A DNA stretch of 63,992 bases, counting the filler, from an uncultured Methanosarcinales archaeon (GTDB lineage: Archaea > Nanobdellota > Nanobdellia > Woesearchaeales > CALCXY01): assembly GCA_964385185.1 (NCBI GenBank). It is 4 parts of 4 records of this genome, joined end to end, with 100 filler letters (N's around TTAATTAATTAA, not from the genome) between each part and the next. Parts side by side here need not be neighbours in the genome. Positions count along the whole stretch, not along the records: positions 26,178 to 50,852 come from CAYLOA010000016.1; 3 more parts are not named here. One strand, written 5' to 3'. The translations under genes were made by a program, and so were the position numbers. Shown here piece by piece: positions 16,479-50,208 of the stretch (its first letter is position 1; every line of letters starts with the position of its first letter). The notes below the pieces were generated by a model. The model worked only from the letters and a program-made list of their open reading frames with translations. It ran no database searches and was not told the DNA's origin.

Positions 16479-16656
16479 GATTGCACCTCACTGTAATTGG
16501 GTAAAATTGAATTTCTATCATTTTGATTAGTTATTCAATTTTTCCTCTGTGGACTTTGACTTTTATATTTAAACTCAAAGTCCTCAATAGGTTATTCTTT
16601 CATTTTGAGTTTTATGGTATTTAAATCTTTCCATTAACAAGTAAATTAGAAACTAC

Positions 16657-17892: not shown

Positions 17893-17978
17893 CAGCTGGA
17901 CGATGCCCTTGCATTTCCAGCTAATGGTCTGGAAATGCAGAAGGGCAGGTTCACTGTGTGAACCACCAAGTCCAGCTG
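17893..17978 (+). repeat. Structured intergenic element, copy A (three-way junction)
   Basis: CAGCTGGAC/GTCCAGCTG closing stem; long hairpin with GA bulge; GGTTCAC-TGT-GTGAACC. Confidence 0.85.
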
Positions 17979-18012
17979 CAAAAAGAACAAGTCCAAAAAA
18001 GCCAACAAAAAA

Positions 18013-22890: not shown

Positions 22891-22973
22891 TACTGGACTG
22901 TGCACTTACATTTCCAGCTAATGGCTGGAAATGTAGAGGGGCAGGTGCTCTGTGAGCACCAAAAAGTCCAGTG
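22891..22973 (+). repeat. Structured intergenic element, copy B (three-way junction)
   Basis: Homologous to copy A with compensatory changes; GGTGCTC-TGT-GAGCACC. Confidence 0.85.
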
Positions 22974-23046
22974 CGGCCGTTATTAAGTCCAACGTTCCAA
23001 AATTCTAACCAAAACCTATTTATACATACATCAACCACTAAAGATT

Positions 23047-26317: not shown

Positions 26318-27139
26318 ATGGATAGACTGGATAACACCGAAACTGAGATTGAGGATATTATCGTTCAAGAGTGTAAGCTCAAAGGATATTCACAAAAGAC
26401 GATAAATACTTATCTGCACCACATTAAGAAATTTGTACTTTCTGAAAAAACACCAAGAGAATTCCTTCTTGGATTGATTGCGAAAGATAATTCTGATGAA
26501 ACAGTTAGATCTGCAAGTTTTGCAATTAAATTCTATCTAAATACTATAAAAAAGGAGAGTTCAGAAATTCAAGACGTTCTAGATAATTTACCAAATGTAA
26601 AAAGAGAAAAGAAACTTCCAGTAATACTTTCAAAAGAAGAAATTGAAAGACTTATATCATCTACAAAAAATATGAATCATAGGCTAATTATTCAGATAGG
26701 ATACTCAGCAGGTCTGCGAATCAGCGAGATAATAAACCTTAAATGGCAGGATGTGGATTTTGACAGAAACCTGATTCATTTGAAAAGAGCAAAAGGAAAA
26801 AAAGACAGAATTGTTATGCTCTCTTTGAAAGTTAAAGAGGGTTTAATGAATCTGACGCCCAATAAAGAAGGATATATCTTCTTGACAAATAGAGGCGGAA
26901 AATACACACAAAGAACAATACAGAAAATCATTAAGAACGCAGCTATAAATGTAAGCATAAGAAAGAATGTGACCCCTCACACATTAAGACATTCTTTTGC
27001 AACTCATCTATTGGAAAATGGAACAGATATACGATACATTAGGGATTTATTAGGACATTCAGATATTAGTACCACACTAATATATACAAAAGTTTCAAAC
27101 AAGAATATTTGCAACATTAAAAGTCCGTTGGATGGTTAA
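26318..27139 (+). CDS. Tyrosine recombinase, IntI/Xer-like (SPLD C-terminus, no IntI insertion)
   Basis: GYSQKTINTY, KLPVILSKEE, GLRISE, KGKKDR, HTLRHSFATHLLE, LGH..TTLIY, KSPLD. Confidence 0.92.
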   Translation: MDRLDNTETEIEDIIVQECKLKGYSQKTINTYLHHIKKFVLSEKTPREFLLGLIAKDNSDETVRSASFAIKFYLNTIKKESSEIQDVLDNLPNVKREKKLPVILSKEEIERLISSTKNMNHRLIIQIGYSAGLRISEIINLKWQDVDFDRNLIHLKRAKGKKDRIVMLSLKVKEGLMNLTPNKEGYIFLTNRGGKYTQRTIQKIIKNAAINVSIRKNVTPHTLRHSFATHLLENGTDIRYIRDLLGHSDISTTLIYTKVSNKNICNIKSPLDG

Positions 27140-32381: not shown

Positions 32382-33317
32382 TTAGCAATATGCTGTCTTG
32401 ATTGCCTTGAAGATTTTTGAAAAGCAAGCTTTTCTGATGTTAAAGTGTTTAGGATAATATAAAAAACCAAGATGTGATTCTAATTCAATAACGTAGGGTT
32501 TTTGATCTTTGTCTACAATAAAATCTATTGAATAAATGCTTGGTTTAAGTTTTGCAAATTTTTGTGCTATTCCCTTTTGAATTTTTATAATATCTTCTGG
32601 TATTTTGTTATTAGGAATGAATATTTTTCTAGCACCTTGTGCACAGTTTCCTTTGATGGAACCTTTTGGAGGAATTCTTACATATGCATGATGTAGTTTT
32701 CCATTGACGAGGATTAATCGTAAATCATGTCTTCCTTTTATTCCTAAAGCTGGAATTCCCTGTGTAGTGTCTATTAGTGGTTGGACAATATTTCCTTTTT
32801 TAATTTTAGGTATTCTTTTTGGTGTAATCTTTCTGATCCCGATACCTCTAATACCAAATCTTGGTTTTAAGATTGCCCTATTTCCAAATTTCTTAAGTGC
32901 ACGTTTAGCTTCTCTCTTATTTTTGACTAAGATAGTGGGGATGGCATTCTTTTTTGGAAGAAATTTGTAGGTTGCGAATTTATCACAACAGATTTTATCT
33001 AATTCTAAACGATTAATTATTTTTGCTGTTTTTTGTAGCTTCCTCATAAAGGGAAGTCTTTTAGGATTAATTGAAAAATAGATGTATGCCAGTTTGAATT
33101 TAATATCGTATACTTTTTTCCATTTACCTTTTTCTAATGTGTAAGCTTTCTCTAGAACTTTACCATCACACCAACTTCTATGAGCGACAAAAATCTTAAT
33201 CCCTTCTTTTTTTGCTGCTTGAGAGAAGGCTTTATGAAATCTTGTCCATAGATTGGTTCTGCCTGGGGATCTCTTAGACCAATCTTCTGTCCAAGTGAGT
33301 AGTGCTAGGTTTTTCAT
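32382..33317 (-). CDS. ATP-grasp ligase (RimK-like)
   Basis: DKFAT, ILKPRFGIRGIG, HDLRL, IDFIVD..VIELES. Confidence 0.8.
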   Translation of the reverse strand: MKNLALLTWTEDWSKRSPGRTNLWTRFHKAFSQAAKKEGIKIFVAHRSWCDGKVLEKAYTLEKGKWKKVYDIKFKLAYIYFSINPKRLPFMRKLQKTAKIINRLELDKICCDKFATYKFLPKKNAIPTILVKNKREAKRALKKFGNRAILKPRFGIRGIGIRKITPKRIPKIKKGNIVQPLIDTTQGIPALGIKGRHDLRLILVNGKLHHAYVRIPPKGSIKGNCAQGARKIFIPNNKIPEDIIKIQKGIAQKFAKLKPSIYSIDFIVDKDQKPYVIELESHLGFLYYPKHFNIRKACFSKIFKAIKTAYC

Positions 33318-34249
33318 TTTATAAGTTTAACAAGCTCATTTATAATTGCTTGTATAAAAGCTCTTTGCTTATTTTTTGATGAGGGTGATTTGTATGCTGA
33401 ATCTATGACGGGCGTTGATTCGAGCTCTGAAAGAATAGGATTAGTACCATTTTCATACAGAAAATCTGCAGAGTACACTCGTGGGCCATACTTACTTAAT
33501 TTGTCGTCTATATTCTTTATAATTTTTTTTACTTTATTTGGAACTCTATCAACGTGTGTGACGGTTCCACCTAAAGCAATGTTGGCAACTAATCCTTCCT
33601 TTGGTTTTCTTACATATGCATGAAGAATTTTTCCTGAGAGTACGATGACTCTGAAGTCGTGGACTCCAGTTATATTCAATTCCTTTATTCCTTTAGAAGT
33701 GTCAATAAATCTTTGGACTAGTTTTCTTGATCGGATTATGGGTAAGTTGTCTTTCGATCTAATTTGGACCCCTTTGCCCATAATTCCTGATTTGGGTTTG
33801 ATGACTATTTTTTCTGATGGTAATTTTTTAGCTAGATTTCTTAGTTCCTCATTTGTTGTAACGAGAAATGAAGGTACCATATATTTTTGGAAGATTTTTG
33901 TTGTTTTGAATTTGTCCCAACAGATATTATTGAGATAAGGATTATTGAGTAATGGAGTTTTAGCATGCATTGCTGTTTTGACTATCTTCCACGTTTTACT
34001 GTTCCATGTTCTATCTAGAATGACTTCTATTTTTTGATTCTTGATTTTTATGTTCTTCTTTCCAAGAGTTATTGCTTCTGTGAAAGATTTATCTTTGTAG
34101 TTTATCTGTCTGCCAAGAACTACATTGTATCCTTTTTTATTAGCAAGAGTTCCTAGAAGATTATAAGCATCTAATGTTTGCTGCTCTTTTTTAGTCGTTG
34201 GATGGAGCCAACGAGGATATTTTAACCAGAGAACGCCGAGCGTTTTCAT
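33314..34249 (-). CDS. ATP-grasp ligase (RimK-like)
   Basis: WDKF, VIKPKSGIMGKG, HDFRV, ANIALGG, ADF..SELESTP. Confidence 0.8.
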   Translation of the reverse strand: MKTLGVLWLKYPRWLHPTTKKEQQTLDAYNLLGTLANKKGYNVVLGRQINYKDKSFTEAITLGKKNIKIKNQKIEVILDRTWNSKTWKIVKTAMHAKTPLLNNPYLNNICWDKFKTTKIFQKYMVPSFLVTTNEELRNLAKKLPSEKIVIKPKSGIMGKGVQIRSKDNLPIIRSRKLVQRFIDTSKGIKELNITGVHDFRVIVLSGKILHAYVRKPKEGLVANIALGGTVTHVDRVPNKVKKIIKNIDDKLSKYGPRVYSADFLYENGTNPILSELESTPVIDSAYKSPSSKNKQRAFIQAIINELVKLIK

Positions 34250-34255
34250 TTGAAA

Positions 34256-35311
34256 TTATTCTTCACCCATCGGGTGCCACATTACTTTTTGTAATTTTGG
34301 CTTATCTGGAGTTAGAATATACTTGTAATTACTCTTAGACATTTCTTTTGCTTTTACTTCCATTGCCCTTGTAATTTTTTCTGATATACCTTTGATCTTG
34401 TCTTCTAGTTCTTTTTCAACTGCTGCACCATATCCACCTTGGTAGATATTGGTAACTTTGTTAGGGGAGACTCTTTTTACAGCTCCTGCGTATTTACCAT
34501 TGATCACAAACACTCGTAAATCCCAGTATTTGTTCTTATCGACTTTTTTCATAGTAATTCTTCTTTGTACCATAAATCCTGGGCCGATTTTTACATTAGG
34601 TGGCATTCTTGGAGTATTCATTACTTTAACAAATCTTCCTAGTGAGTTTCCTAATGGTTTTACGACATATCCGTTTTTGAATAACTTCTTATTTGTCTTT
34701 AGGATGTGTCTTAGTTCATCATTACTATTCACTAAGAAATATTCTGGAATGTTAATACCCTTTACGTCTTCTACTGATTCATAGCATTTATGCTTAAACC
34801 AGCAGAGATCTCGAACAGCCATAGTATTTATGACATTTACTCCTTCTTGCTCGAATTCTGGGTTTAATTGGAAGTAATTTCTGAATATAATGTCAGGTTT
34901 TACCTTTTTTCGACTTGAATTAAGAACATATGAGTTTCCACCGCCTTTTTGGAAGTTGGTTAATGTTAATTTTATGAAATTATGATCGAGAAAAAATGAT
35001 CTTGCAACTCTTAGATTTGAGTCCATATAACAGATATGAATGTCTTTTTTAACAAACTCCGTGAGCTTATGTGCTAGGTAGTGTGCCTTGTGGCCAGATT
35101 CCCAGTACTTTTTCTTAACGAACATGCAAAAGTTCTTCCCAGGCAAGGTATTGATGTATTTAGCTATCTTCTTGACAGTGGTAGGATCTCCGTAGATCTT
35201 CTCATATTCTTCATGGACTGTTGAAGCGGAATTTGCCTCTAAGAACCAAGGTTTTCCACTTTTATCAAATATAAAGTCCAATCCTGCAATTGGATAGTAT
35301 TCCATTTTCAT
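34256..35311 (-). CDS. Circularly permuted ATP-grasp protein
   Basis: N-terminal GLDFIFDKSGKPWFLEANS; VVKPLGNSLG, WDLRVFV, TNIYQGG later. Confidence 0.75.
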   Translation of the reverse strand: MKMEYYPIAGLDFIFDKSGKPWFLEANSASTVHEEYEKIYGDPTTVKKIAKYINTLPGKNFCMFVKKKYWESGHKAHYLAHKLTEFVKKDIHICYMDSNLRVARSFFLDHNFIKLTLTNFQKGGGNSYVLNSSRKKVKPDIIFRNYFQLNPEFEQEGVNVINTMAVRDLCWFKHKCYESVEDVKGINIPEYFLVNSNDELRHILKTNKKLFKNGYVVKPLGNSLGRFVKVMNTPRMPPNVKIGPGFMVQRRITMKKVDKNKYWDLRVFVINGKYAGAVKRVSPNKVTNIYQGGYGAAVEKELEDKIKGISEKITRAMEVKAKEMSKSNYKYILTPDKPKLQKVMWHPMGEE

Positions 35312-38366: not shown

Positions 38367-38411
38367 GGCACTCTCAGAGTGCCCACTCTCGCAGTCTTAC
38401 GACTGCGAGTG
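38367..38411 (-). repeat. Double-hairpin intergenic element, copy C
   Basis: + strand GGCACTC-TCA-GAGTGCC then CACTCTCGCAGTC-TTAC-GACTGCGAGTG. Confidence 0.85.
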
Positions 38412-38460
38412 GATGGCTTCCGCATTTCAGACTTGAGATAAAACTGAGATAAAATTTGAA

Positions 38461-39057
38461 TTACTTCTTTCTTATTATAGAAATGATATGGTATGTGATT
38501 AGGACAAATAGGGCTCCTAATAGGAACCAGATGCCTACGTTTTGCCAGATTGAGGGTTGTGTGACTACAGGTTTTATTATTTGAGGTAATGCTTTAGCCA
38601 TTTCTGGGGCTGCTGAGTCGAAGGCAACCGGTGCTGCTTCGGCAATTGCTGTTTGAGTGGTTGGTGTAACTTTGTTCATAACTCCTATGATGAAGGACGC
38701 TCCTAATGCTAAAATGCCTACTGGTAAGATTGATTTTAGTTTTTCCTTTATTCCATGGGTAGATTTAGGTGCTATGATTATGTATTTGTTTGCTAATTTG
38801 TAATGATTGACTTCTTTTCCTTTTTCACTGTAGTGAAATTCATCTGCTATGACTAATTCAGCTTTAGTAAGGTGTTTTAGATTGTAATGCACGGTTGAAA
38901 GAGGGATGGATAATTTTTGGGAGAGCTCTGATTCTGTTGCTTCTTTTTCTGTTAGGTAGTCCAGGATTTTTCGGCAACTGGCGTTTTGGACGACTTGAGC
39001 TAGTTTTTGTGCTTGGTCGTCTTGTAGTGATACGAGTAGGAATGATTGTTTTGCCAT
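38461..39057 (-). CDS. ArsR-type HTH protein with two C-terminal TM segments
   Basis: CRKILDYL..TESELS..PLSTVHYNL, YSEKG. Confidence 0.8.
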   Translation of the reverse strand: MAKQSFLLVSLQDDQAQKLAQVVQNASCRKILDYLTEKEATESELSQKLSIPLSTVHYNLKHLTKAELVIADEFHYSEKGKEVNHYKLANKYIIIAPKSTHGIKEKLKSILPVGILALGASFIIGVMNKVTPTTQTAIAEAAPVAFDSAAPEMAKALPQIIKPVVTQPSIWQNVGIWFLLGALFVLITYHIISIIRKK

Positions 39058-39159
39058 ACCTCTTGAGGGTTGAATTGGTTATAAAAGAGTTTTGGTAGTT
39101 GCAATTGAGATGGAAGTTATTGCATAATGTTTAAATAATATTTTTGATTAGTATGTTGT

Positions 39160-39609
39160 ATGGGATGTGATTTATGTGGAAAAGAGAGTTCTTTGGTTGT
39201 TGCAAAAATAGAGGGCACTGAGTTGAATGTCTGTAGTGATTGTGGACAACATGGTAAAGTAATTCGAACTGTTCAAGGTATTGTTGTAACTAATACTACC
39301 CCTCAAAGTCGGGAAAGTGGTCCTGAAGTAATGCAATTAGTTGTTCAAGATTACGCTCAAAGAATTAGAGGTAAAAGGGAGAGTATGGGTTTAACTCAAG
39401 AGAAATTTGCTCAACAGTTGAATGAGAAAGAGAGTGTAATCCATCATCTTGAAGTAGGGAAAGGTGGGATGAGCTTGGATTTGGCTAGAAAGTTAGAACG
39501 GAAACTTGGAATAACACTTGTGGAGCAATATGAAGATAGTACTGAAAAAATTAAGAAAACAGATAATGTTGCTTTAACTATTGGCGACCTTATTAAGGCA
39601 AAGGAATAG
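39160..39609 (+). CDS. Archaeal MBF1 (Zn-ribbon + HTH)
   Basis: CDLCG..IEG..VCSDC; HTH GLTQEKFA; LTIGD. Confidence 0.9.
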   Translation: MGCDLCGKESSLVVAKIEGTELNVCSDCGQHGKVIRTVQGIVVTNTTPQSRESGPEVMQLVVQDYAQRIRGKRESMGLTQEKFAQQLNEKESVIHHLEVGKGGMSLDLARKLERKLGITLVEQYEDSTEKIKKTDNVALTIGDLIKAKE

Positions 39610-40297
39610 CTTCGCACTCAGGATATTCTTCTTCAAAATTTGTACAAATTTCTTTTAACAACGTATCTCTGTCTTGTAGACCATTGAAGTTTTTGTTCTC
39701 AATAGCTACGGTAGGATATTCTGATACATTGTATACCTTTTTCAGTATAGGGATGAATGGTTCTTGCTCGAATTGTCCGTCAAATGAGAAAATTAACAGT
39801 CTATCTGTGAATACTCTTTTTAGATAGGTTAAGACGGTTCCTTGATTGGTGCAATCTGCACAATCTGCGTCATTCGAGAAAAAATAGAATGCCGTGACGA
39901 TATCTCTATTACATATTTCTTGAGTTGACTTTGCTAGTATGTAGTATCTTACTTGGGAGATAATATATTGACGTTTTAGATGGGTGTATGCTTTTTCATT
40001 TATCTGAGATGATTTTACAAAATTTTCTAATTGTTTTCTCGTATCCTCGAGCTCTTGGACATTTGCTTCAAACGTTTGTTCTACCGCAGCACATGAACGA
40101 TTATCTTTGGTAAATGAGACATAGAGATATTGAGCTTGGAGCGATTCAAAGTCTATTGCTTGTTCTGTTGCTGCTTCTTGTAGAAACTTAACTCTCTCTG
40201 AAGTGAGTTGGGATCCTATTAAGATTCCAATCGTGAAAAAGCATAGTGTTAGGATGAATGCTGTAATGTGTCTCTTTACGTTTAGTTTTCTTCTCAT
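39593..40297 (-). CDS. Membrane-anchored thioredoxin-like protein
   Basis: N-terminal TM; YFFS..CADC..QG..L; YPTV. Confidence 0.6.
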   Translation of the reverse strand: MRRKLNVKRHITAFILTLCFFTIGILIGSQLTSERVKFLQEAATEQAIDFESLQAQYLYVSFTKDNRSCAAVEQTFEANVQELEDTRKQLENFVKSSQINEKAYTHLKRQYIISQVRYYILAKSTQEICNRDIVTAFYFFSNDADCADCTNQGTVLTYLKRVFTDRLLIFSFDGQFEQEPFIPILKKVYNVSEYPTVAIENKNFNGLQDRDTLLKEICTNFEEEYPECEAIPLP

Positions 40298-40343
40298 ATT
40301 AGTATCTTCAAAAATTTCCTGGTATATATTACTGTAGTATTTA

Positions 40344-41600
40344 TCACCATTTTTGTATTTTTCCTCTCATAAAATCGAATGCGATTCCCACCCATACAAT
40401 GGTGAGTAGGAATGAATAGAGTATTAAATATGCTGGAACAGCAAGTCTTCCTCTAGATTTCCATGATTCTTTTGTATATATGTGTGCGAAATATATAATA
40501 ATCATACCTAATGAAAAAATGACAAAAGCATAAAATACATTGGTGTAGTTTACTTGGATAAAGGAAAAATTAAATTGATATCCTTTTATGAGTGTGATGA
40601 TGTCAAAATTGATATACGCTAATGAAGCCATATATTTGTATGCAGGTTTGATTAAGTCATGGATGGCAATGGTTATGAGGACTAGGGCTAGAATTCCTGC
40701 CGACATGACTCTTGGTGCATGTTGCATTCCAAACTCTTCATATTTTTTGTTGAACATCAAGCCACGGTAACGCCACATGTTAATTAATGATCCTTTGTAC
40801 CATCTATTTCTTTGGCTATAGAATTGGGAAAATTTCTTAGGAGCAATAGTCAATACTTCTGCGTCTAATGTTTGGACAATTCGGTAATGATGTTTTTGTA
40901 GGCGGAGAGTAATTTCAAGATCTTCTGTTAAGTTGTGTTCGTCAAAACCTTTTAGTTTTTTTAGGACTTCTGTTCTGTATACTGAGAAAGGTCCTGGAGA
41001 AACATGGACACAGTCTAAGATTGCCATGAGTTTCTTGTAGAAAAAATTGATAAGGTATTCTGACCATTGGACCTTTTGAAGGAAATTAGTTGTTTCTTTT
41101 AATTTCATTAAAGGTAAGACGGTTGCAATGTCAGGAGCATCAAAATACGGGAGAAGAATTTTTAGGGTATCTTTTCTTGGTTCTGAATCTGCATCGAGGC
41201 AGACAAAAAATTCTCCCTTGGTTTCTTTTAGTCCTGCGTTTAATGCTGCACCCTTTCCTTTATTTTTTTGTGTTATGAGTTTAATATTATAGAGAGGGTG
41301 ACTGTTGATATATTCCTCAGTTATTTTCTTTGTGTTGTCTGTTGAACCGTCGTTGATTACGAGAATTTGTAATTTATCCTTGGGATATTCCATATTGATT
41401 ACTGAATTTAAGGTGTCTGCAATTGATTCTTCTTCATTGTATGCAGGAATAACTATACTTGTTAAGGGGAAAGAATGTAATTTCTTTTTTACGGTGTATT
41501 TATCTGGATCTTCATCGAGAAGGACTAATAACCAGAAAATTAGAAAATAGGAGGCTATAAGAAACGCAATCCAGACTGCTATTTCGCTGAGTAGTAACAT
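40344..41600 (-). CDS. Processive GT2 glycosyltransferase (cellulose/hyaluronan/PNAG synthase-like)
   Basis: DGSTD, DAD, TED, QRNRW; flanking TM helices. Confidence 0.88.
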   Translation of the reverse strand: MLLLSEIAVWIAFLIASYFLIFWLLVLLDEDPDKYTVKKKLHSFPLTSIVIPAYNEEESIADTLNSVINMEYPKDKLQILVINDGSTDNTKKITEEYINSHPLYNIKLITQKNKGKGAALNAGLKETKGEFFVCLDADSEPRKDTLKILLPYFDAPDIATVLPLMKLKETTNFLQKVQWSEYLINFFYKKLMAILDCVHVSPGPFSVYRTEVLKKLKGFDEHNLTEDLEITLRLQKHHYRIVQTLDAEVLTIAPKKFSQFYSQRNRWYKGSLINMWRYRGLMFNKKYEEFGMQHAPRVMSAGILALVLITIAIHDLIKPAYKYMASLAYINFDIITLIKGYQFNFSFIQVNYTNVFYAFVIFSLGMIIIYFAHIYTKESWKSRGRLAVPAYLILYSFLLTIVWVGIAFDFMRGKIQKW

Positions 41601-41627
41601 TTTTGGGTAGGTTGTTTGGATATGGCT

Positions 41628-42935
41628 TTATTTTACTTGCCAGATCTCTACTCCTTGAGCTGAATAAACGTTTTTAAAGGTTTCGTCATTACGTAATAAG
41701 AAGAGTAATCCTTCATCTGGTTGGTTCCAGACGAGACCATTTTTCATTTCTTCGTCTATGAAGATGTATTCTATTTCTGATTGTGATATTAACTGTATTG
41801 CTTTCTCTAGATTTCTCGTGTGGAGTAATTCTTCGGGATTTGTGATGGTTTTTTTCTGGGCTATAGCTTGAATCCAGTAATTTCGAGAAGGATGGGAGAG
41901 GACAGTGTAGAAATGTGGTTCATCATCTAATAACCACTCTAAAGCTTCAATCTGTTCTGGATGAGGAGAGGTTTTTGCAATTGTTGAGAGAAAAGTAACG
42001 TTGGCTATGATTATTCCAATTATAATAAGGTATAGTGATAATTTTTTTAATCTTGGAAGTTCCCATGTTGATGTCATGACAGAGAGTAAACCGAAGGCTG
42101 CTAAAATGTGGATAGGGATGTAGAGATAGATGGAGGCTTCTGGAATCCAGAGAGTTATGGTTGCTATTATTATGAGGAAAATAAATAGTGAATAGTAGGA
42201 CTTCTTCTTTTTCCAGAGATAGAGGAGTCCGAGGATGGCTAATAATAAGTAAAAAAGACTTAATCCATACCAAGATCCTAGTTCGACGAATAAATTTGAA
42301 ATTCTTGGTAAGAGTTGAGGCATGGGGTATTTGTAGTATACTTGAAGAATGACAGTTTGTAATGTAAGGAAGATTGCTATGAATGGAGCATGGGAACAGG
42401 TTTTCTTTTTAGCAACGGCAAACGAGATGAGCAGGATTATGGTGCAGATGGCATAGACTCTGCCCATGAAAGGGATGGTAGCTAGTAGTAAGGTTGCTAT
42501 AATTGAGTTTCTCAGAGTTCCTGAAACCATAAGGTAGATTGATGCAACGGTTATGAGTAAGATTAACGGTAGAGGTGATGAAAAATAAATTAATGAGAGA
42601 TAGAACGGTGTGAAGATGAGCATAATCATGGAGAGATTCCTTATTTCAGAGTCTAATCCTAACTTTGAGAGGAGTGAAGGGAGTATTAATAGGGTGAGAA
42701 TTGTTAAGATGGAGGGGAGGATGATTGAGAGGAGGAATGGTGATAGAGATAGTAAATTATGGTAGAGATTTGGGGAAAGACTGGTGAGTGATTCTGCTGT
42801 TGCTAGGTGAAGATACGATTCAGCTCCTGGCAGAGTGGGTGATAATGTGAGCCTTAGTGCTAAAAGTATGAGGGGTATGAGTATTAAAATGGTGTACTGG
42901 ATTGCTTTGGGATTATTTTTTAATACATCTTTCAT
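41628..42935 (-). CDS. Multi-TM GT-C/STT3-like membrane protein
   Basis: About 11 TM plus soluble C-domain EALEWL..VLS. Confidence 0.6.
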   Translation of the reverse strand: MKDVLKNNPKAIQYTILILIPLILLALRLTLSPTLPGAESYLHLATAESLTSLSPNLYHNLLSLSPFLLSIILPSILTILTLLILPSLLSKLGLDSEIRNLSMIMLIFTPFYLSLIYFSSPLPLILLITVASIYLMVSGTLRNSIIATLLLATIPFMGRVYAICTIILLISFAVAKKKTCSHAPFIAIFLTLQTVILQVYYKYPMPQLLPRISNLFVELGSWYGLSLFYLLLAILGLLYLWKKKKSYYSLFIFLIIIATITLWIPEASIYLYIPIHILAAFGLLSVMTSTWELPRLKKLSLYLIIIGIIIANVTFLSTIAKTSPHPEQIEALEWLLDDEPHFYTVLSHPSRNYWIQAIAQKKTITNPEELLHTRNLEKAIQLISQSEIEYIFIDEEMKNGLVWNQPDEGLLFLLRNDETFKNVYSAQGVEIWQVK

Positions 42936-44428
42936 ATGACTTCCTCAACTTTGCATAATACTTCGAAAATTCTCACTTCGTCATTTTTGTAGACTGTTTT
43001 TAGGCATTTTCTATCAAAAATATCTAATTCGTGAATTTGGTAGTATTCTTTTATTGATTCTGAGAAGATGATGTAGTTAACATTGTATTTTGCCGTTATA
43101 GTGTAGGCTTCTGTTTGTGAAAATGTGGTATAGAGTCTTTCAATATCTTGAGCTCTTTGCTGGGTGTTTGCTATCATTAAAAAATTTGAATCCATTACAT
43201 TTTTTCTTTTTCCTAGATGGGTGATAAGATGACCATCGTCAATCTTTGAGAGGATGATTGATGATTCTGGTGTGTTTTGTAACCAGGTGAATGCTTCGAT
43301 TTCATTATCTGAATACGCTTCTGAAGTTGTTTGTGCACCTAGTACTATTGCAGGGAGGATGGATGTTAGTAGGAAGGATGTGAAGATTAATGCTAAGAAG
43401 TATGATTCCCACTTGGCAAACTTTGTTTTTTGGATGTAGTTGATCGATAGTTTGAATCTTTGTGCAAAGAGGAGGAGAAGGACTGATCCTAGGATCATTA
43501 ATCCAGAAGTGAAGGGGATGAGTTTAAACCAGAGGAGGATACCTGCTGCGAAAACAAATGAGATGAAGAGATAGATGTTTTTTTGATGTTCTCTGAATAA
43601 ATATCTGTATATTACGTAGATTCCATAGAATAAGGGGATGAGTCCAATTTGATAGGTTGCTTGAAGTAATGTAAAATCTTGGAAATAGTTTTGGAGTAGA
43701 CTTGGAGGGATGTTTAATGTTAGTAATTGTGTTCCATGGAGGAGTAAAGCGTTTCTGAAAATTAAGAATTGTGAGAATATTATGAATAAGGTTGAGAAGA
43801 TCATCACTTCGTTTTCTGCTTGATTTGTTTGGAGACCTTCCACTTTGATAAAAATATAGTAGAGGACAAATGCTAAGATGTAGATTATTGAGGATGGATG
43901 GAGGAGGGCGATTGCTGATATGGTGAGGGCTGCTTTTATTCCATACTTTTTATCATGTTTAATATTTACGAAGTAGTAGAGTGAGAGGAAGAGTAAAGGT
44001 ATGATAAGAGAGAATACTGAGATGTCGTTTAGGGTAGTTACAAAGAAGATTGGGATGAAGGGTGAGATGACTGCTCCTAATAATGCAATGTTTTCGTTGT
44101 TTGTGGATTGTATTACTAATCTGTATATAATGAAGACTATTGAGGAGATGAAGATGTTAGGTAGGATTTTTGCAACTAGATGTAATGGTAGGAAAACGTT
44201 GAAAAATGCTAAGACGTACATGAATAATGGATTGAATAATAACGTTCTTCCTGCATGACTTAGGGTGTCTGTGAATAATGGAATTCCCTGATGTGTGATG
44301 TGTTCCACTTGTCTTAGAATGAAGTAAGCGTTATCTGAGGAGAAGTTTGCAGTTGAGAAGGCAAACTTTAGTCTTATGGCTAATGTTAAAGCGAAAATAA
44401 GCCATAATAGGAAGGTTGAACGTTTCAT
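42932..44428 (-). CDS. Multi-TM GT-C/STT3-like membrane protein
   Basis: AYFILRQVE, many TM, C-domain EAFTWL..ILS..GHLI..D. Confidence 0.65.
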   Translation of the reverse strand: MKRSTFLLWLIFALTLAIRLKFAFSTANFSSDNAYFILRQVEHITHQGIPLFTDTLSHAGRTLLFNPLFMYVLAFFNVFLPLHLVAKILPNIFISSIVFIIYRLVIQSTNNENIALLGAVISPFIPIFFVTTLNDISVFSLIIPLLFLSLYYFVNIKHDKKYGIKAALTISAIALLHPSSIIYILAFVLYYIFIKVEGLQTNQAENEVMIFSTLFIIFSQFLIFRNALLLHGTQLLTLNIPPSLLQNYFQDFTLLQATYQIGLIPLFYGIYVIYRYLFREHQKNIYLFISFVFAAGILLWFKLIPFTSGLMILGSVLLLLFAQRFKLSINYIQKTKFAKWESYFLALIFTSFLLTSILPAIVLGAQTTSEAYSDNEIEAFTWLQNTPESSIILSKIDDGHLITHLGKRKNVMDSNFLMIANTQQRAQDIERLYTTFSQTEAYTITAKYNVNYIIFSESIKEYYQIHELDIFDRKCLKTVYKNDEVRIFEVLCKVEEVI

Positions 44429-44494
44429 AGTAGATAATTGTTATTGTTGGTATTTAAAGGTTAGGGATTGTTTTAAAGGGGCTAAAACGGAAAT

Positions 44495-44539
44495 GGCTTG
44501 CACAGCAAGCCGACTCTCGCAGTCTTACGACTGCGAGTT
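44495..44539 (-). repeat. Double-hairpin intergenic element, copy D
   Basis: + strand GGCTTGC-ACA-GCAAGCC then GACTCTCGCAGTC-TTAC-GACTGCGAGTT. Confidence 0.88.
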
Positions 44540-44604
44540 GCGTTGTTATTGTTTGGTCTATTTTCATGGTAATGTATATAAACTTTGGACTGTTGTTATA
44601 GTTT

Positions 44605-45282
44605 ATGGAGAGGGTTAATTCTGGGAGTGAGGAATTTGATGCATTTCTGAGTGGAGGGTATGAGACTGATTGTATTACTGCAATCTACGGCCCTGCAGGG
44701 AGTGGAAAAACTACTCTTTGTTTGTTAGCGGCTATAGGTGCTGTGAAAAGAGGTAAGAAAGTACTCTTTGTTGATACTGAAGGAGGGATTAGTGTTGATC
44801 GATTAGGACAATTAGCCTCTGGGGATGGGAGTATTTTAGAACATTGTTTGTTTTTACGGCCTACAACATTTGTTGAGCAAAAAAAACAGATTGAAAAGAT
44901 AAAAGATATGGTTTCTGATAGTATTGGACTTATTGTATTAGATACAATTGGAATGTTGTATCGTGTAGAGAGAGGACAGAGTTATGATCCCTATGAGATT
45001 GATAATGCTCTTGAGAGTCAGATTAGTAGTTTGAGTGAGATTGCGAGAGTTAAGAAAATACCAGTTTTGATTACCAATCAAGTGTATGATAATCTTAAAA
45101 CTGATAGTGTGAAAATGGTCGGTGGAAATTTATTAGGATATAGTGCCAAGTGTTTGGTAGAGTTGAAGAATTTGACCGGTGGAAAGATTGCATTTTTACG
45201 AAAACATAGAAGTCTTGAAAATAGAGAGATGCCGTTTAAGATTATAGAATCTGGATTACAGGTTGAGAAAAAAATAATTTAA
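44605..45282 (+). CDS. radB: DNA repair protein RadB
   Basis: GPAGSGKT, VDTEGG, TNQVY, C-terminal KHRS. Confidence 0.92.
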   Translation: MERVNSGSEEFDAFLSGGYETDCITAIYGPAGSGKTTLCLLAAIGAVKRGKKVLFVDTEGGISVDRLGQLASGDGSILEHCLFLRPTTFVEQKKQIEKIKDMVSDSIGLIVLDTIGMLYRVERGQSYDPYEIDNALESQISSLSEIARVKKIPVLITNQVYDNLKTDSVKMVGGNLLGYSAKCLVELKNLTGGKIAFLRKHRSLENREMPFKIIESGLQVEKKII

Positions 45283-45545
45283 GGTAAAGGTCTTCTTTTT
45301 AGGATAATTGCTGTAATGATTGCTCCTACAGATAGGATTATTGCAGCGATTGTGAAATCGTGTGATTTTACTATCTTTTCTATAACTGGGATTTGATGGC
45401 AAGCATAATCAGAACCACAATAAAATCCTTCTTCACAGTCTGTGTTTGAATTACAATCTCTCGATTCTATGGTTACATAGTATCCAATTATGAGTATGAT
45501 GATAAGTCCAAAGATAAAGAATCCTGCATTTGCTTTTTTGTTCAT
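45279..45545 (-). CDS. Small 2-TM protein with Cys-rich loop
   Basis: DCNSNTDCEEGFYCGSDYACH between TM segments. Confidence 0.65.
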   Translation of the reverse strand: MNKKANAGFFIFGLIIILIIGYYVTIESRDCNSNTDCEEGFYCGSDYACHQIPVIEKIVKSHDFTIAAIILSVGAIITAIILKRRPLP

Positions 45546-45631
45546 TAAATAGGAGAATCAGGGGGCTTTTTTAAGGATTTGTATTTATAATTTAACAGTT
45601 AACTTTATAAATACCCTCAGAGTTACTATCT

Positions 45632-45688
45632 TTATTACCGATACTGCTAAGGTGATAAATATGCAGCATCTTCTTAGTACGGTAATGG
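45632..45688 (+). promoter_or_regulatory. Structured 5' leader of rps2
   Basis: ATTACCG/CGGTAAT and TGCTAAGG/TCTTAGTA stems between the TATA box (45604) and ATG. Confidence 0.5.
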
Positions 45689-45698
45689 ACATGTTAGA

Positions 45699-46298
45699 AT
45701 GGCTGAAAAAGAACTATTAGTATCACAGGATCAGTACCTAAAATCAGGTATCCATATTGGAACTAAGTTTAGGACTAAGTATATGGCGAGATTTATCTAT
45801 AAAACTCGACCTGATGGTCTTAGTGTATTAAATCTTCAAGAAATAGATGAACGAATCAAAGTTGCAGCTCAATTTCTTGCTCAGTATGAATCAGAAGACA
45901 TCCTAATTGTAAGTCGAAGAGAAAATGGATGGAAAGGAGTAAAATTATTTGGAGAATTAACTGGAGCTAAAACTTTTCCAGGACGATACCCTCCGGGCGT
46001 TATGACTAATCCTAATTTGAACAAATTTATAGAGCCAAAGATTGTTTTAGTAACTGATGTTTGGCCTGATAAGAATGCAGTAATTGATGCAGTTAAGATT
46101 GGAATTCCAGTTCTTGCTATGTGTGATACAAATAATCAATGTAATAATATTGATTTGGTTATTCCCTCTAATAACAAAGGTAAAAAATCACTAGGATTAT
46201 TCTTCTATATCTTAACAAGAGAAGTTCTTCGAGCTAAAGGTAAATTAAAACCTGATGAAGAGCTTAAGCAGACTATTGAAGATTTTACTGAAGAATAA
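45699..46298 (+). CDS. rps2: 30S ribosomal protein S2 (archaeal)
   Basis: YLKSGIHIGT, RPDGL, GRYPPG, CDTNN, IPSNNKG. Confidence 0.95.
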   Translation: MAEKELLVSQDQYLKSGIHIGTKFRTKYMARFIYKTRPDGLSVLNLQEIDERIKVAAQFLAQYESEDILIVSRRENGWKGVKLFGELTGAKTFPGRYPPGVMTNPNLNKFIEPKIVLVTDVWPDKNAVIDAVKIGIPVLAMCDTNNQCNNIDLVIPSNNKGKKSLGLFFYILTREVLRAKGKLKPDEELKQTIEDFTEE

Positions 46299-46668
46299 AT
46301 TCTGTTAAGGTTGTACTATATGATTCTCTTTGGAGTGTAATTTTTGTAGTTATGGTTGCTTTATTGTTTTCTATGGTTACAATTATGGGTTCTTCTTGAG
46401 TGATCGTTATTGTAGGGAATAATTCATTGTTTATACATGTTTCAAATGCTCTTTGTAGGAGGATGGGGTTGTTTTGAAACTTCTCTTCTAGGCAAGTGTG
46501 TAGGTAATCATTTACTTGGGCAAAATCTTTTGCATTTGTAGTTTTTATATTGTATGCTTGGCCTGTTTTGAGGTCAGTTGTTGTATCTATAGTTATGAAG
46601 ATGAATAAGAGTGAAGCTGTTACTATGATTGCTAATGTTAAGTAGAGTGTGATTAGCTTTGTTTGCAT
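46285..46668 (-). CDS. Hypothetical protein with N-terminal TM
   Basis: Hydrophobic N-terminus; TATA box upstream. Confidence 0.5.
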   Translation of the reverse strand: MQTKLITLYLTLAIIVTASLLFIFITIDTTTDLKTGQAYNIKTTNAKDFAQVNDYLHTCLEEKFQNNPILLQRAFETCINNELFPTITITQEEPIIVTIENNKATITTKITLQRESYSTTLTEFILQ

Positions 46669-46738
46669 ATAAGATATTAATTCGAGAAATATTTAAATCT
46701 AGCTATTCTTAAAAAAAAGAAAATAAAAAATTAGAAAT

Positions 46739-47205
46739 TTATTCTTTCTTTGGTTCTTCAGTTTCTTCTGGAGATTCTTCAGCTGGTTCTTCAGCAGGAG
46801 NNNNNNNNNNNNNNNNNNNNNNNNNNNNNNNNNNNNNNNNNNNNNNNNNNNNNNNNNNNNNNNNNNNNNNNNNNNNNNNNNNNNNNNNNNNNNNNNNNNN
46901 GATTCTTCAGCAGGTTCTTCTGGAGATTCTTCCATAGGTTGTGCTTCTTCAGTTGATTCTTCAGCAGGAGCGTCTGATTCAACTGCACCTTCTGCGTCGC
47001 CAACTTTTTCTGCGAAACCTACTTTTCTCAGAACTCTGGTTATTTTAATTCTTACTTCGTCTCCCTCGTTTACACCAGGTACGAACAGAACAAAACCGTC
47101 CTTCTTTGCGATACCGTCTCCTTTGGCACCAACTGCTTCTATTTTTACATCTAATTCGTCGCCTTCTCTTACTGGTGGCGTCATTCCAGGTCTTTCGTCA
47201 TACAT
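46739..47205 (-). CDS. TRAM-domain protein with acidic Glu/Pro tail (spans scaffold gap)
   Basis: PPVREG..GAKGDGIAK..GFVLFVPG; after the gap the tail reads PAEEPAEESPEETEEPKKE-stop at 46739. Confidence 0.85.
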
Positions 47206-47279
47206 TTATATTCACCTTTATTGTCTTTACATTTCTTATGAAATGCATAGAAGTTAGTGGTTAGAATATGTTTATAAAG

Positions 47280-48413
47280 TTATTTGTTTTGTTCCCAAGC
47301 TTCCTTTACTGCTTTAGCTATAACTGGGACAACGTCTTTATTTGTTGCGTAAGGTAGAATTTCATCTTCTGTTGGATTTTCGATTATTCCTGCTAGGGCA
47401 ATTGCTGCTGCTAGCTTCATATCTTCTGTGATTTTAGTTGCTTTAGCTTCAAGAGCACCTCGAAATATTCCTGGAAATCCTAGTACGTTGTTTACTTGGT
47501 TTGGAAAGTCGGAACGGCCCGTTGCAATTACTTTTGCTCCTGCTTCTTTTGCTAAATCTGGTAGTATTTCTGGATCTGGATTTGCCATGGCCATGATTAT
47601 CGGAGAGGTGTTCATTGATTGAACCATTTCTTTTGAGACGCAATTTTTTACTGAAAGACCAATGAAAATATCTGAGTTTTTTAATGCTAATTCTAGATTA
47701 CCTGATTGATCTGTTGTGAATTCAGCTTTGTATTCGTTTACATCTGTTCTTTCTTTTGAAATAATTCCTTTTGAGTCTAGTAAAGTGATGTTTGTAATTC
47801 CGTAATTTTTTAACATCTTTCCTACTGCAATACCTGCAGCTCCAGCACCGTTGATTACTACCTTTGCTGATTTGTCTTTGTTTGTGACTTTTAAAGCGTT
47901 GATAATTGCTGCTAAACAGACTACGGCTGTTCCGTGTTGATCATCGTGCATCACTGGAATACCTAAGTCTTGTAATTGCGCTTCTATTTCAAAACATTTA
48001 GGAGCTTTAATGTCTTCTAAATTAATTCCTCCAAATCCGGGAGCAATGTTTTTTGCTATAAGGATAATTTCCTCTTGATCTTGGGTTGTAGTGCAGATGG
48101 GAAAAGCATCAATATCTGCGAAAGCTTTGAATAATGCACATTTTCCTTCCATGACTGGTAGGGATGCTTCAGCTCCAATATTGCCTAGGCCTAGGACTGC
48201 TGAGCCATCTGAGATAACTGCTACCGTATTTCCTTTGAATGTATATTTGTAGACGTCTTCTTTGTTCTTTGCTATATATCTGCAAGGTTCTGCTACACCT
48301 GGAGTGTATGCTAGTGATAGGTCTTCTTTTGTGTTTAAAGGCATTTTTAAGGAGATTGCTAGTTTGCCTTTTTGTTTCTCATGTAATAGAAGAGATTCTT
48401 GTTGTGTATCCAT
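47280..48413 (-). CDS. Malic enzyme (NAD(P)-dependent)
   Basis: LAYTPGVA, DGSAVLGLG, INLEDI, HDDQHGT, GAGAAG, FPGIFRGAL. Confidence 0.93.
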   Translation of the reverse strand: MDTQQESLLLHEKQKGKLAISLKMPLNTKEDLSLAYTPGVAEPCRYIAKNKEDVYKYTFKGNTVAVISDGSAVLGLGNIGAEASLPVMEGKCALFKAFADIDAFPICTTTQDQEEIILIAKNIAPGFGGINLEDIKAPKCFEIEAQLQDLGIPVMHDDQHGTAVVCLAAIINALKVTNKDKSAKVVINGAGAAGIAVGKMLKNYGITNITLLDSKGIISKERTDVNEYKAEFTTDQSGNLELALKNSDIFIGLSVKNCVSKEMVQSMNTSPIIMAMANPDPEILPDLAKEAGAKVIATGRSDFPNQVNNVLGFPGIFRGALEAKATKITEDMKLAAAIALAGIIENPTEDEILPYATNKDVVPVIAKAVKEAWEQNK

Positions 48414-48484
48414 TTAGAGTTGGATTGGTTGTAAGTTTAAAAGAGTTTTGTAATAGAGAATTGGAGAAATACGAAAAAGGTAAT

Positions 48485-48528
48485 GGCTTGCACAGTAAGC
48501 CGACTCTCGCAGTCTTACGACTGCGAGT
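48485..48528 (-). repeat. Double-hairpin intergenic element, copy E
   Basis: One mismatch to copy D over the shared stretch. Confidence 0.88.
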
Positions 48529-50082: not shown

Positions 50083-50208
50083 CTGTATAATAGGTAGATT
50101 TGGTGGTTTAAATAGTCTACCCGTGGTTGTCTTGTGGTTGTGGTTAAAATTTACGAGAATTAGGGTGATTTTCGGAAGAATTGTGGTTTTTGAGGGTTGG
50201 AATAGACA

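Follow-up and report, generated by a model that had tools for sequence, protein, structure and literature searches.

A strand-locked family of compensated intergenic palindromes, reminiscent of REP elements, in a marine woesearchaeal genome

The window analysed here is a 63,992-nt stretch of the genome G000, a Woesearchaeota host genome assembled from a tiny marine archaeon (1.30 Mb, 85 contigs, 35% GC), and consists of contigs C15, C16, C29 and C75 joined by N runs. It carries members of a family of short folded intergenic repeats that counts 66 units at 50 loci and occupies about 0.3% of the genome. With somewhat better than even confidence, we regard this family as a lineage-specific, non-autonomous palindromic DNA element whose working resembles that of repetitive extragenic palindromes (REP) and bacterial interspersed mosaic elements (BIME), also known in the form of REPINs. 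Lone units are locked to one strand of the chromosome and at the same time free in their orientation to genes, which favours a replication-linked element of single-stranded DNA over an RNA.

A preliminary description of the window had reported three dispersed copies of a double hairpin with an identical 26-nt core. This number proved an undercount, as the window holds two more units of a different type and the genome many others. The 26-mer itself has seven exact copies in G000 and 20 within two mismatches, and a structure-first search revealed that the short hairpin adjoining it is the common core of the larger family. Units were counted with hidden Markov models (HMMs) for three types, A, B and C, at thresholds of 16, 17 and 40 bits, which were our own choice. 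The 25 type A, 26 type B and 15 type C units are 44–90 nt long, and all types share a 6–7-bp hairpin with an ACA loop. Type A joins this core to a second hairpin, without a closing stem; the loop of the second hairpin is TTAC or TTTC, replaced in five of 25 units by longer loops containing CATTA. Type B places the core on a bulged stem with a 3-nt periodicity, and type C is a three-way junction of a closing stem, the ACA core hairpin and a bulged long hairpin with a CATTA loop. Type A units of a sister lineage are recognised by the type C model too (22 and 19 bits), so A and C are related folds. The feet of the hairpins read ACTG, ACCG or ACAG in type B and vary in A and C. The ACA loop is interrupted by a branched module of some 50 nt in two A units and one B unit, and likewise in a B unit of the sister lineage (L143).

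Structure is conserved over sequence throughout the family. In stem alignments of 63 units (the three interrupted ones were excluded, one row of type C has a local misalignment, and for type B the register was set row by row), 1123 of 1165 stem cells are Watson–Crick pairs; on the ACA strand, i.e., the strand reading ACA in the core loop, seven cells are G·T and 18 are A·C. Of the 18 variants of the core stem, 16 pair perfectly, and five are common to more than one unit type. Covariation in types A and B exceeds all 500 shuffles and all slid controls, and in type C 20 of 29 pairs are compensated. Compensated pair types are divided evenly between transitions and transversions (29 each). Core-stem variants are found with loop variants in each of the four possible combinations, which indicates module exchange or recurrent change.

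The 50 loci comprise 34 lone units and 16 doublets. By overall skew, and by third-codon skew over both gene directions, the ACA strand of lone units is the G-rich strand in 33 cases out of 34 (binomial p 4e-9, although copies are not fully independent); the sole exception, on C40, adjoins another long hairpin. Strand asymmetry is very strong in this genome in general, with a third-codon GC skew of about 0.2–0.6 that is mostly irrespective of gene direction. Lone units between co-directional genes are split 10 versus 6 (p 0.45), and the remainder lie between divergent (15) or convergent (1) genes or in undetermined settings (2); gene direction does not account for the strand lock. Doublets are arranged tail-to-tail without exception, so half of their units face the opposite way; they are mostly heterodimers, with A–B pairs in both directions (5 and 3), and several have a shared linker. 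A TATA-like match precedes 29 of 49 genes pointing outward from the units, and in 24 of these 29 it falls between unit and start codon, 17–30 nt ahead of the latter, so that units are located upstream of their neighbours' promoters and not in leaders.

These observations bear directly on the second suggestion of the preliminary description, a small structured RNA. Such a reading, in which a multicopy small RNA or untranslated-region element with GNRA tetraloops is made from the minus strand, can draw on several features: GTAA or GAAA loops appear on the TGT strand (opposite to the ACA strand) in 17 of 18 short type A units, this strand is predicted to fold at lower energy as RNA in 22 of 23 units of type A and 13 of 15 of type C, and type C is a covarying three-way junction. 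However, orientation follows skew and not genes, units stand upstream of promoters, no more than 18 of 1165 cells are G·T whichever strand is read, and transversions make up half of the compensated changes. Structured RNAs are usually richer in G·U. Rfam offers no match to the units either: the window returns tRNA-Phe only, and six loci return tRNAs and one sub-threshold match over a tRNA. Taken together, rare wobble, transversion-rich compensation and a strand lock independent of transcription point to folded DNA over RNA, and we consider the RNA reading quite unlikely.

Within the window, the identical 26-mer lies at 38385–38410, 44513–44538 and 48503–48528, each time on the plus strand of C16, and none of 100 shuffles contains it; no further match with up to three mismatches exists in the window. 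Either strand of all three copies folds as the same two hairpins (z from −4.0 to −5.5 against shuffles). The preliminary description was right that the copies are intergenic and GC-rich (57–59% against 35% genome-wide) and that the long-hairpin loop reads GTAA on the minus strand. Its statement that the adjoining 7-bp hairpin varies while keeping its pairing is accurate for copies 1 and 2, but not strictly so for copy 3 (Table 1).

Table 1. Positions of family members in the window and of units interrupted by a branched module
Feature	Position	Strand	Remarks
Type A copy 1	38367..38410	+	7-bp core GGCACTC-TCA-GAGTGCC, 4-nt linker, 9-bp hairpin with TTAC loop (GTAA on minus strand)
Type A copy 2	44495..44538	+	core GGCTTGC-ACA-GCAAGCC, same 9-bp hairpin as copy 1
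Type A copy 3	48485..48528	+	core GGCTTGC-ACA-GTAAGCC with one G·T opposition on the plus strand, same 9-bp hairpin as copy 1
Type C unit	17895..17980	-	contig C15
Type C unit	22892..22974	-	contig C15; type A at the orthologous site of the sister lineage (L172)
Unit with inserted branched module	G000 C3:34548-34646
Unit with inserted branched module	G000 C8:30050-30131
Unit with inserted branched module	G000 C39:4560-4661

Metagenome contigs L144, L150 and L151, possibly of the same source as the genome, span copies 2 and 3 together with both flanks. Contigs of an independent run enter each of the three copies from unique flanks, and contigs from four runs of four studies cover the window and break at repeats; for the left junction of copy 1, no bridging piece was found among the contigs of the runs placed on the window. 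Given the bridging contigs and the four-run coverage, the copies are not an assembly artefact. The ends of a known insertion sequence (IS), the other objection raised in the preliminary description, agree no better with the data, as the units match none of the IS ends examined.

Copy 1 is located between the start of secF and the end of an ArsR-type HTH gene, copy 2 between radB and a divergent gene for a 498-aa membrane glycosyltransferase-like protein (nearest Atlas clusters mostly from Candidatus Woesearchaeota), and copy 3 between the start of the malic enzyme gene and the end of radA. The adjacency to radA and radB reported previously is thus real, but it is incidental: the 98 genes flanking the family (92 in one scan, 35 of them rescanned, and six in another) are a mix of core and unknown genes unrelated in function. 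An SOS-like regulation of radA and radB was rejected on the same ground, and also because the orthologous radB spacer of a congeneric genome (G001) has no unit. A terminator role was rejected as well, since copy 2 lies between divergent genes and convergent loci are 2 of 48, compared to 59 of 424 background gaps (p 0.067). Among the flanking genes, a PD-(D/E)XK nuclease and a divergent tyrosine recombinase are each encoded at a single locus.

How could such units arise and spread? The G-rich strand is taken here as the lagging-strand template, a textbook assumption, the origin not being placed in the 85-contig assembly. We hypothesize that folding of the units takes place in DNA that is single-stranded at the replication fork, and that a structure-specific enzyme of strand transfer would cut and rejoin them there; the likeliest candidate would be an HUH/Y1 transposase that acts in trans or has meanwhile been lost. 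A doublet would be symmetric to replication, with a direct unit and an inverted one presented by each strand; lone units may then derive mainly from loss of the inverted partner, or from oriented insertion, producing the strand lock, and recombination between units would reshuffle modules. Two lone units (C25 and C48) retain the linker typical of A–B doublets, and the sister lineage keeps the B partner at the C25 site, which fits loss of the inverted unit; oriented insertion fits too. Related activities are described elsewhere: TnpA-REP binds REP and cleaves inverted REP and the linker (PMC3333891), and the Y1 transposases of IS608 and ISDra2 act on the lagging-strand template (PMC6006769).

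As for the strand that folds, the wobble asymmetry (18 versus 7, p 0.04; a weak signal from data that are not independent), the GNRA loops and the predicted energies mentioned above weakly favour the minus, C-rich strand. The GNRA loop pointed out in the preliminary description thus has some support. This lean is compatible with the proposed mechanism if loss affects the unit that folds on the exposed template, as described for attC sites in sedentary integrons (PMC5371416); it also keeps the RNA reading alive, at the low probability given above.

In its general features the family is similar to REP, BIME and REPIN sequences, which are likewise extragenic GC-rich imperfect palindromes in tens of copies, with three related types of unit, inverted heterodimers whose linkers are conserved, varied complementary stems and a lineage-restricted sequence (PMC3333891, PMC3116915, PMC6006769, PMC3733652). 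The designation as a REP-like element in the preliminary description thus remains the best-supported one. The differences are considerable, however: the host is an archaeon, a GTAG/CGTC tag is lacking, no RAYT or Y1 transposase was found, the folds are two hairpins or three-way junctions of 44–90 nt, and singles outnumber doublets (34 to 16) while being undecayed and strand-locked. REPs occur mostly at the 3′ ends of genes, whereas the G000 units lie upstream of promoters. As neither the tag nor a cognate RAYT was found, the family is not assigned to REP proper. Some REP families do lack a dedicated transposase (PMC3733652), and one survey saw no RAYT-type transposases in archaea and only IS200-type ones of subclass 1.1 (PMC6006769).

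Several findings weigh against the REP-like reading and are considered together here. A GTAG tag 5′ of the core is absent from all 63 units on the ACA strand (the opposite strand was judged by eye). The signs as to which strand folds are split, since two B units with GAA loops, and the only change observed within the species (T–A versus T·G), lean to folding of the G-rich strand. No Y1_Tnp domain (PF01797) was detected in G000 or G001, although in an assembly of 85 contigs such a gene of G000 could be missing, while 56 out of 151 genomes in the order encode Y1 transposases; a profile built from the relatives' Y1 proteins retrieved nothing from G000 (best E 0.66), and TnpB (PF07282) and reverse transcriptase (PF00078) are absent from it. 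Insertion polymorphism, proposed earlier as a check, was seen neither as an empty site among 19 same-species loci, which were ascertained by presence, nor in four runs covering the window. Finally, each of the four sister-lineage units sits where G000 has one too; for randomly placed sites the probability would be about 1e-4. This agrees with retention no less than with mobility. With no enzyme, no observed polymorphism and shared sites, a reading in which the units serve the host stays alive at a low probability.

Under this host-function reading, the units would be replication-polarised DNA signals retained at fixed positions between genes, e.g., for lagging-strand priming, fork restart or translocase/condensin loading, homogenised by gene conversion and perhaps derived from a domesticated mobile element. 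The strand lock is in its favour, as are the shared sister sites, the fact that no transposase was found and the presence of a different structured repeat upstream of secF in G001. Pairing is near-perfect even in lone units, unlike the decayed REP singlets described in bacteria (PMC3116915), and about 100 kb of same-species alignment contain one difference inside a unit, T·G to T–A or the reverse, with pairing kept. On the other hand, the covariance models for A, B and C match at most one of 150 other genomes of the order each, the radB site is empty in G001, half of the doublet units face the other way, and units are spaced randomly among intergenic gaps (9 pairs closer than 7 kb against 10.2 simulated). 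In a more specific form, which we likewise hold to be unlikely, single-stranded-DNA signals at fixed sites would be maintained by the host and rewritten by module exchange through a host enzyme unrelated to Y1 transposases, with lineage dialects: ACA-loop units in G000 and three-way junctions in G001 (GAA loops) and G027 (ANA loops), the last genome being from another family.

Units of the sister lineage and of G000 differ at each shared site; with G000 named first, the contents compare as A versus A–B with another core, B–B versus A, C versus A, and B–A versus A–B. Sites therefore persist while units turn over. The suggestion that the element spread recently can be upheld for the long hairpin only, with its 20 copies within two mismatches, and not for the sites, which are common to a lineage of 73–84% identity. 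Beyond these two lineages the family is hardly traceable. A search of 60 relatives did not find the core pattern, and among the 150 other genomes of the order the type A and B models matched one each and type C none; the type A match, in G076 (18 bits), was rejected as it looks like coding sequence. In a scan of 401 genomes with a 13-mer, G027 alone had multiple copies. With a degenerate pattern for type A, GTDB yielded 26 single matches (HMM scores up to 17.4 bits), treated as chance, and four pattern scans for viral carriers in IMG/VR yielded one chance-like match in total, three of them returning none. Of 61 matches in metagenomes, 19 belong to the same species, four to the sister lineage and 38 are chance-like.

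Relatives do possess structured repeats of their own. In G001, where the radB spacer is empty and the spacer between radA and malic enzyme holds other genes, the site upstream of secF, corresponding to copy 1, is occupied by a different three-way-junction repeat. It belongs to a family of G001's own (L094–L101), with at least eight such repeats of about 150 nt with GAA or GTA triloops and G·T wobbles on that strand; in six of eight copies the GAA strand coincides with the C-rich strand. G027 (L201, L203, L210–L217, L228, L230) has at least 11 three-way junctions with a bulged outer stem like that of type B and a short hairpin loop that is often AGA or ATA; its skew is near zero. The shared architecture suggests that the families of G001 and G027 are homologous to that of G000. 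No description of such repeats in Woesearchaeota was found in the literature searched, which largely excludes subscription journals, and the main text of a preprint on 208 complete Nanobdellota genomes mentions neither palindromes nor hairpins.

The nearest archaeal precedent is found in the PATEs and SMRs of Haloquadratum walsbyi, which are transposase-free palindromic repeats without target duplication, with nested insertion and with different elements at one position in two lineages (PMC3119063). By analogy, the units could be fused end remnants of a specific IS200/IS605 element, or a MITE (a miniature inverted-repeat transposable element) of a DDE transposon. PATEs have near-terminal palindromes and are targeted by other small repeats (PMC3119063), and in G000 a branched module is inserted into the ACA loop of three units. 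Target-site duplication is missing here too: the longest flanking direct repeat averages 3.66, compared to 3.73 in shuffled controls (p 0.68, with approximate unit boundaries). Nevertheless, no conserved terminal tetranucleotide was found, no unit flanks a transposase and there is none among the 98 flanking proteins, and the partners of a doublet are inverted. IS200/IS605 ends are read on one strand. In a sample of Y1 loci from genomes of the order, unit HMMs matched none of the flanks (20 loci; 22 for the type C model; best 11.9 bits, E 0.69). The G000 units also differ from PATEs and SMRs in being much shorter, in their extensively compensated stems and in showing no strain-specific insertions. 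We therefore consider an origin from such ends highly improbable; a MITE was rejected for the lack of a closing stem in type A and of any excess of target duplications.

Other candidate enzymes were sought in G000 as well. A regular expression for HUH motifs gave three strict matches, none convincing, and 16 looser ones, and a 244-aa orphan beside a doublet has no usable Atlas match. Elsewhere in the order, several genomes share a close group of IS200-type Y1 transposases of 170–200 aa with conserved structured upstream ends (L257–L265).

G000 does encode two full XerA-like tyrosine recombinases (26318–27139 of the window and L056:1465–2283), and folded single-strand recombination sites of the attC type, used by one of them, are a further explanation, though a very doubtful one. 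The units resemble integron attC sites in their conserved bulged fold, variable terminal structure and replication orientation bias (PMC5371416, PMC9668308), and attC sites have been reported from Nanoarchaeota (PMC5371416, PMC9668308). Structure is kept over sequence with fixed bulges, one B–B doublet has a divergent tyrosine recombinase and a tRNA gene nearby, and G001 gives three strong matches for such recombinases and G027 two. However, none of the 66 units contains both R boxes (RYYYAAC and GTTRRRY), and the two recombinases score 192 and 207 bits, below the integron-integrase (IntI) cut-off of 265; the model matched each in two stretches, as is to be expected of proteins lacking the IntI insert. 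Moreover, doublets are inverted, and the neighbours are not cassette arrays but core genes, which have promoters of their own and vary in orientation. Two near-identical C-terminal fragments of tyrosine recombinases (L057:1507–2296 and L059:1489–2195) were also observed, each followed by a convergent orphan open reading frame with a similar N-terminus; one of them is near tRNA genes.

The genome contains further small repeats. A second family of intergenic palindromes, GGACTTTGA-N(~15)-TCAAAGTCC, is present in six copies whose spacers are AT-rich, at 16550–16583 (C15) and on C7, C28, C31, C38 and C55, and could represent a transcription-factor operator. A non-palindromic GT-rich repeat of 26 nt has five copies, at about 50120–50150 of the window (C16:23945) and on C4, C17, C27 and C51; four copies are on the G-rich strand, the C4 copy is not. 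More small families, with hairpins of the CTTCG type, occur at C6:12626, C10:11035, C22:8514, C3:50060, C28:4714–4990, C22:13343 and C4:64308; some are tandem and interrupted by assembly gaps. Three tandem genes at 32382–35311 (311–351 aa) resemble, by eye only, ATP-grasp (RimK-like) paralogues.

The combination of a strand lock, compensated stems and replacement of units in a genome without a recognisable HUH transposase points either to an unrecognised strand-transfer enzyme or to a chromosomal function of single-stranded-DNA folds in DPANN archaea. In addition, the strand lock allows one to predict the doublet partner that is lost, which makes the question of REP singlets versus doublets testable.

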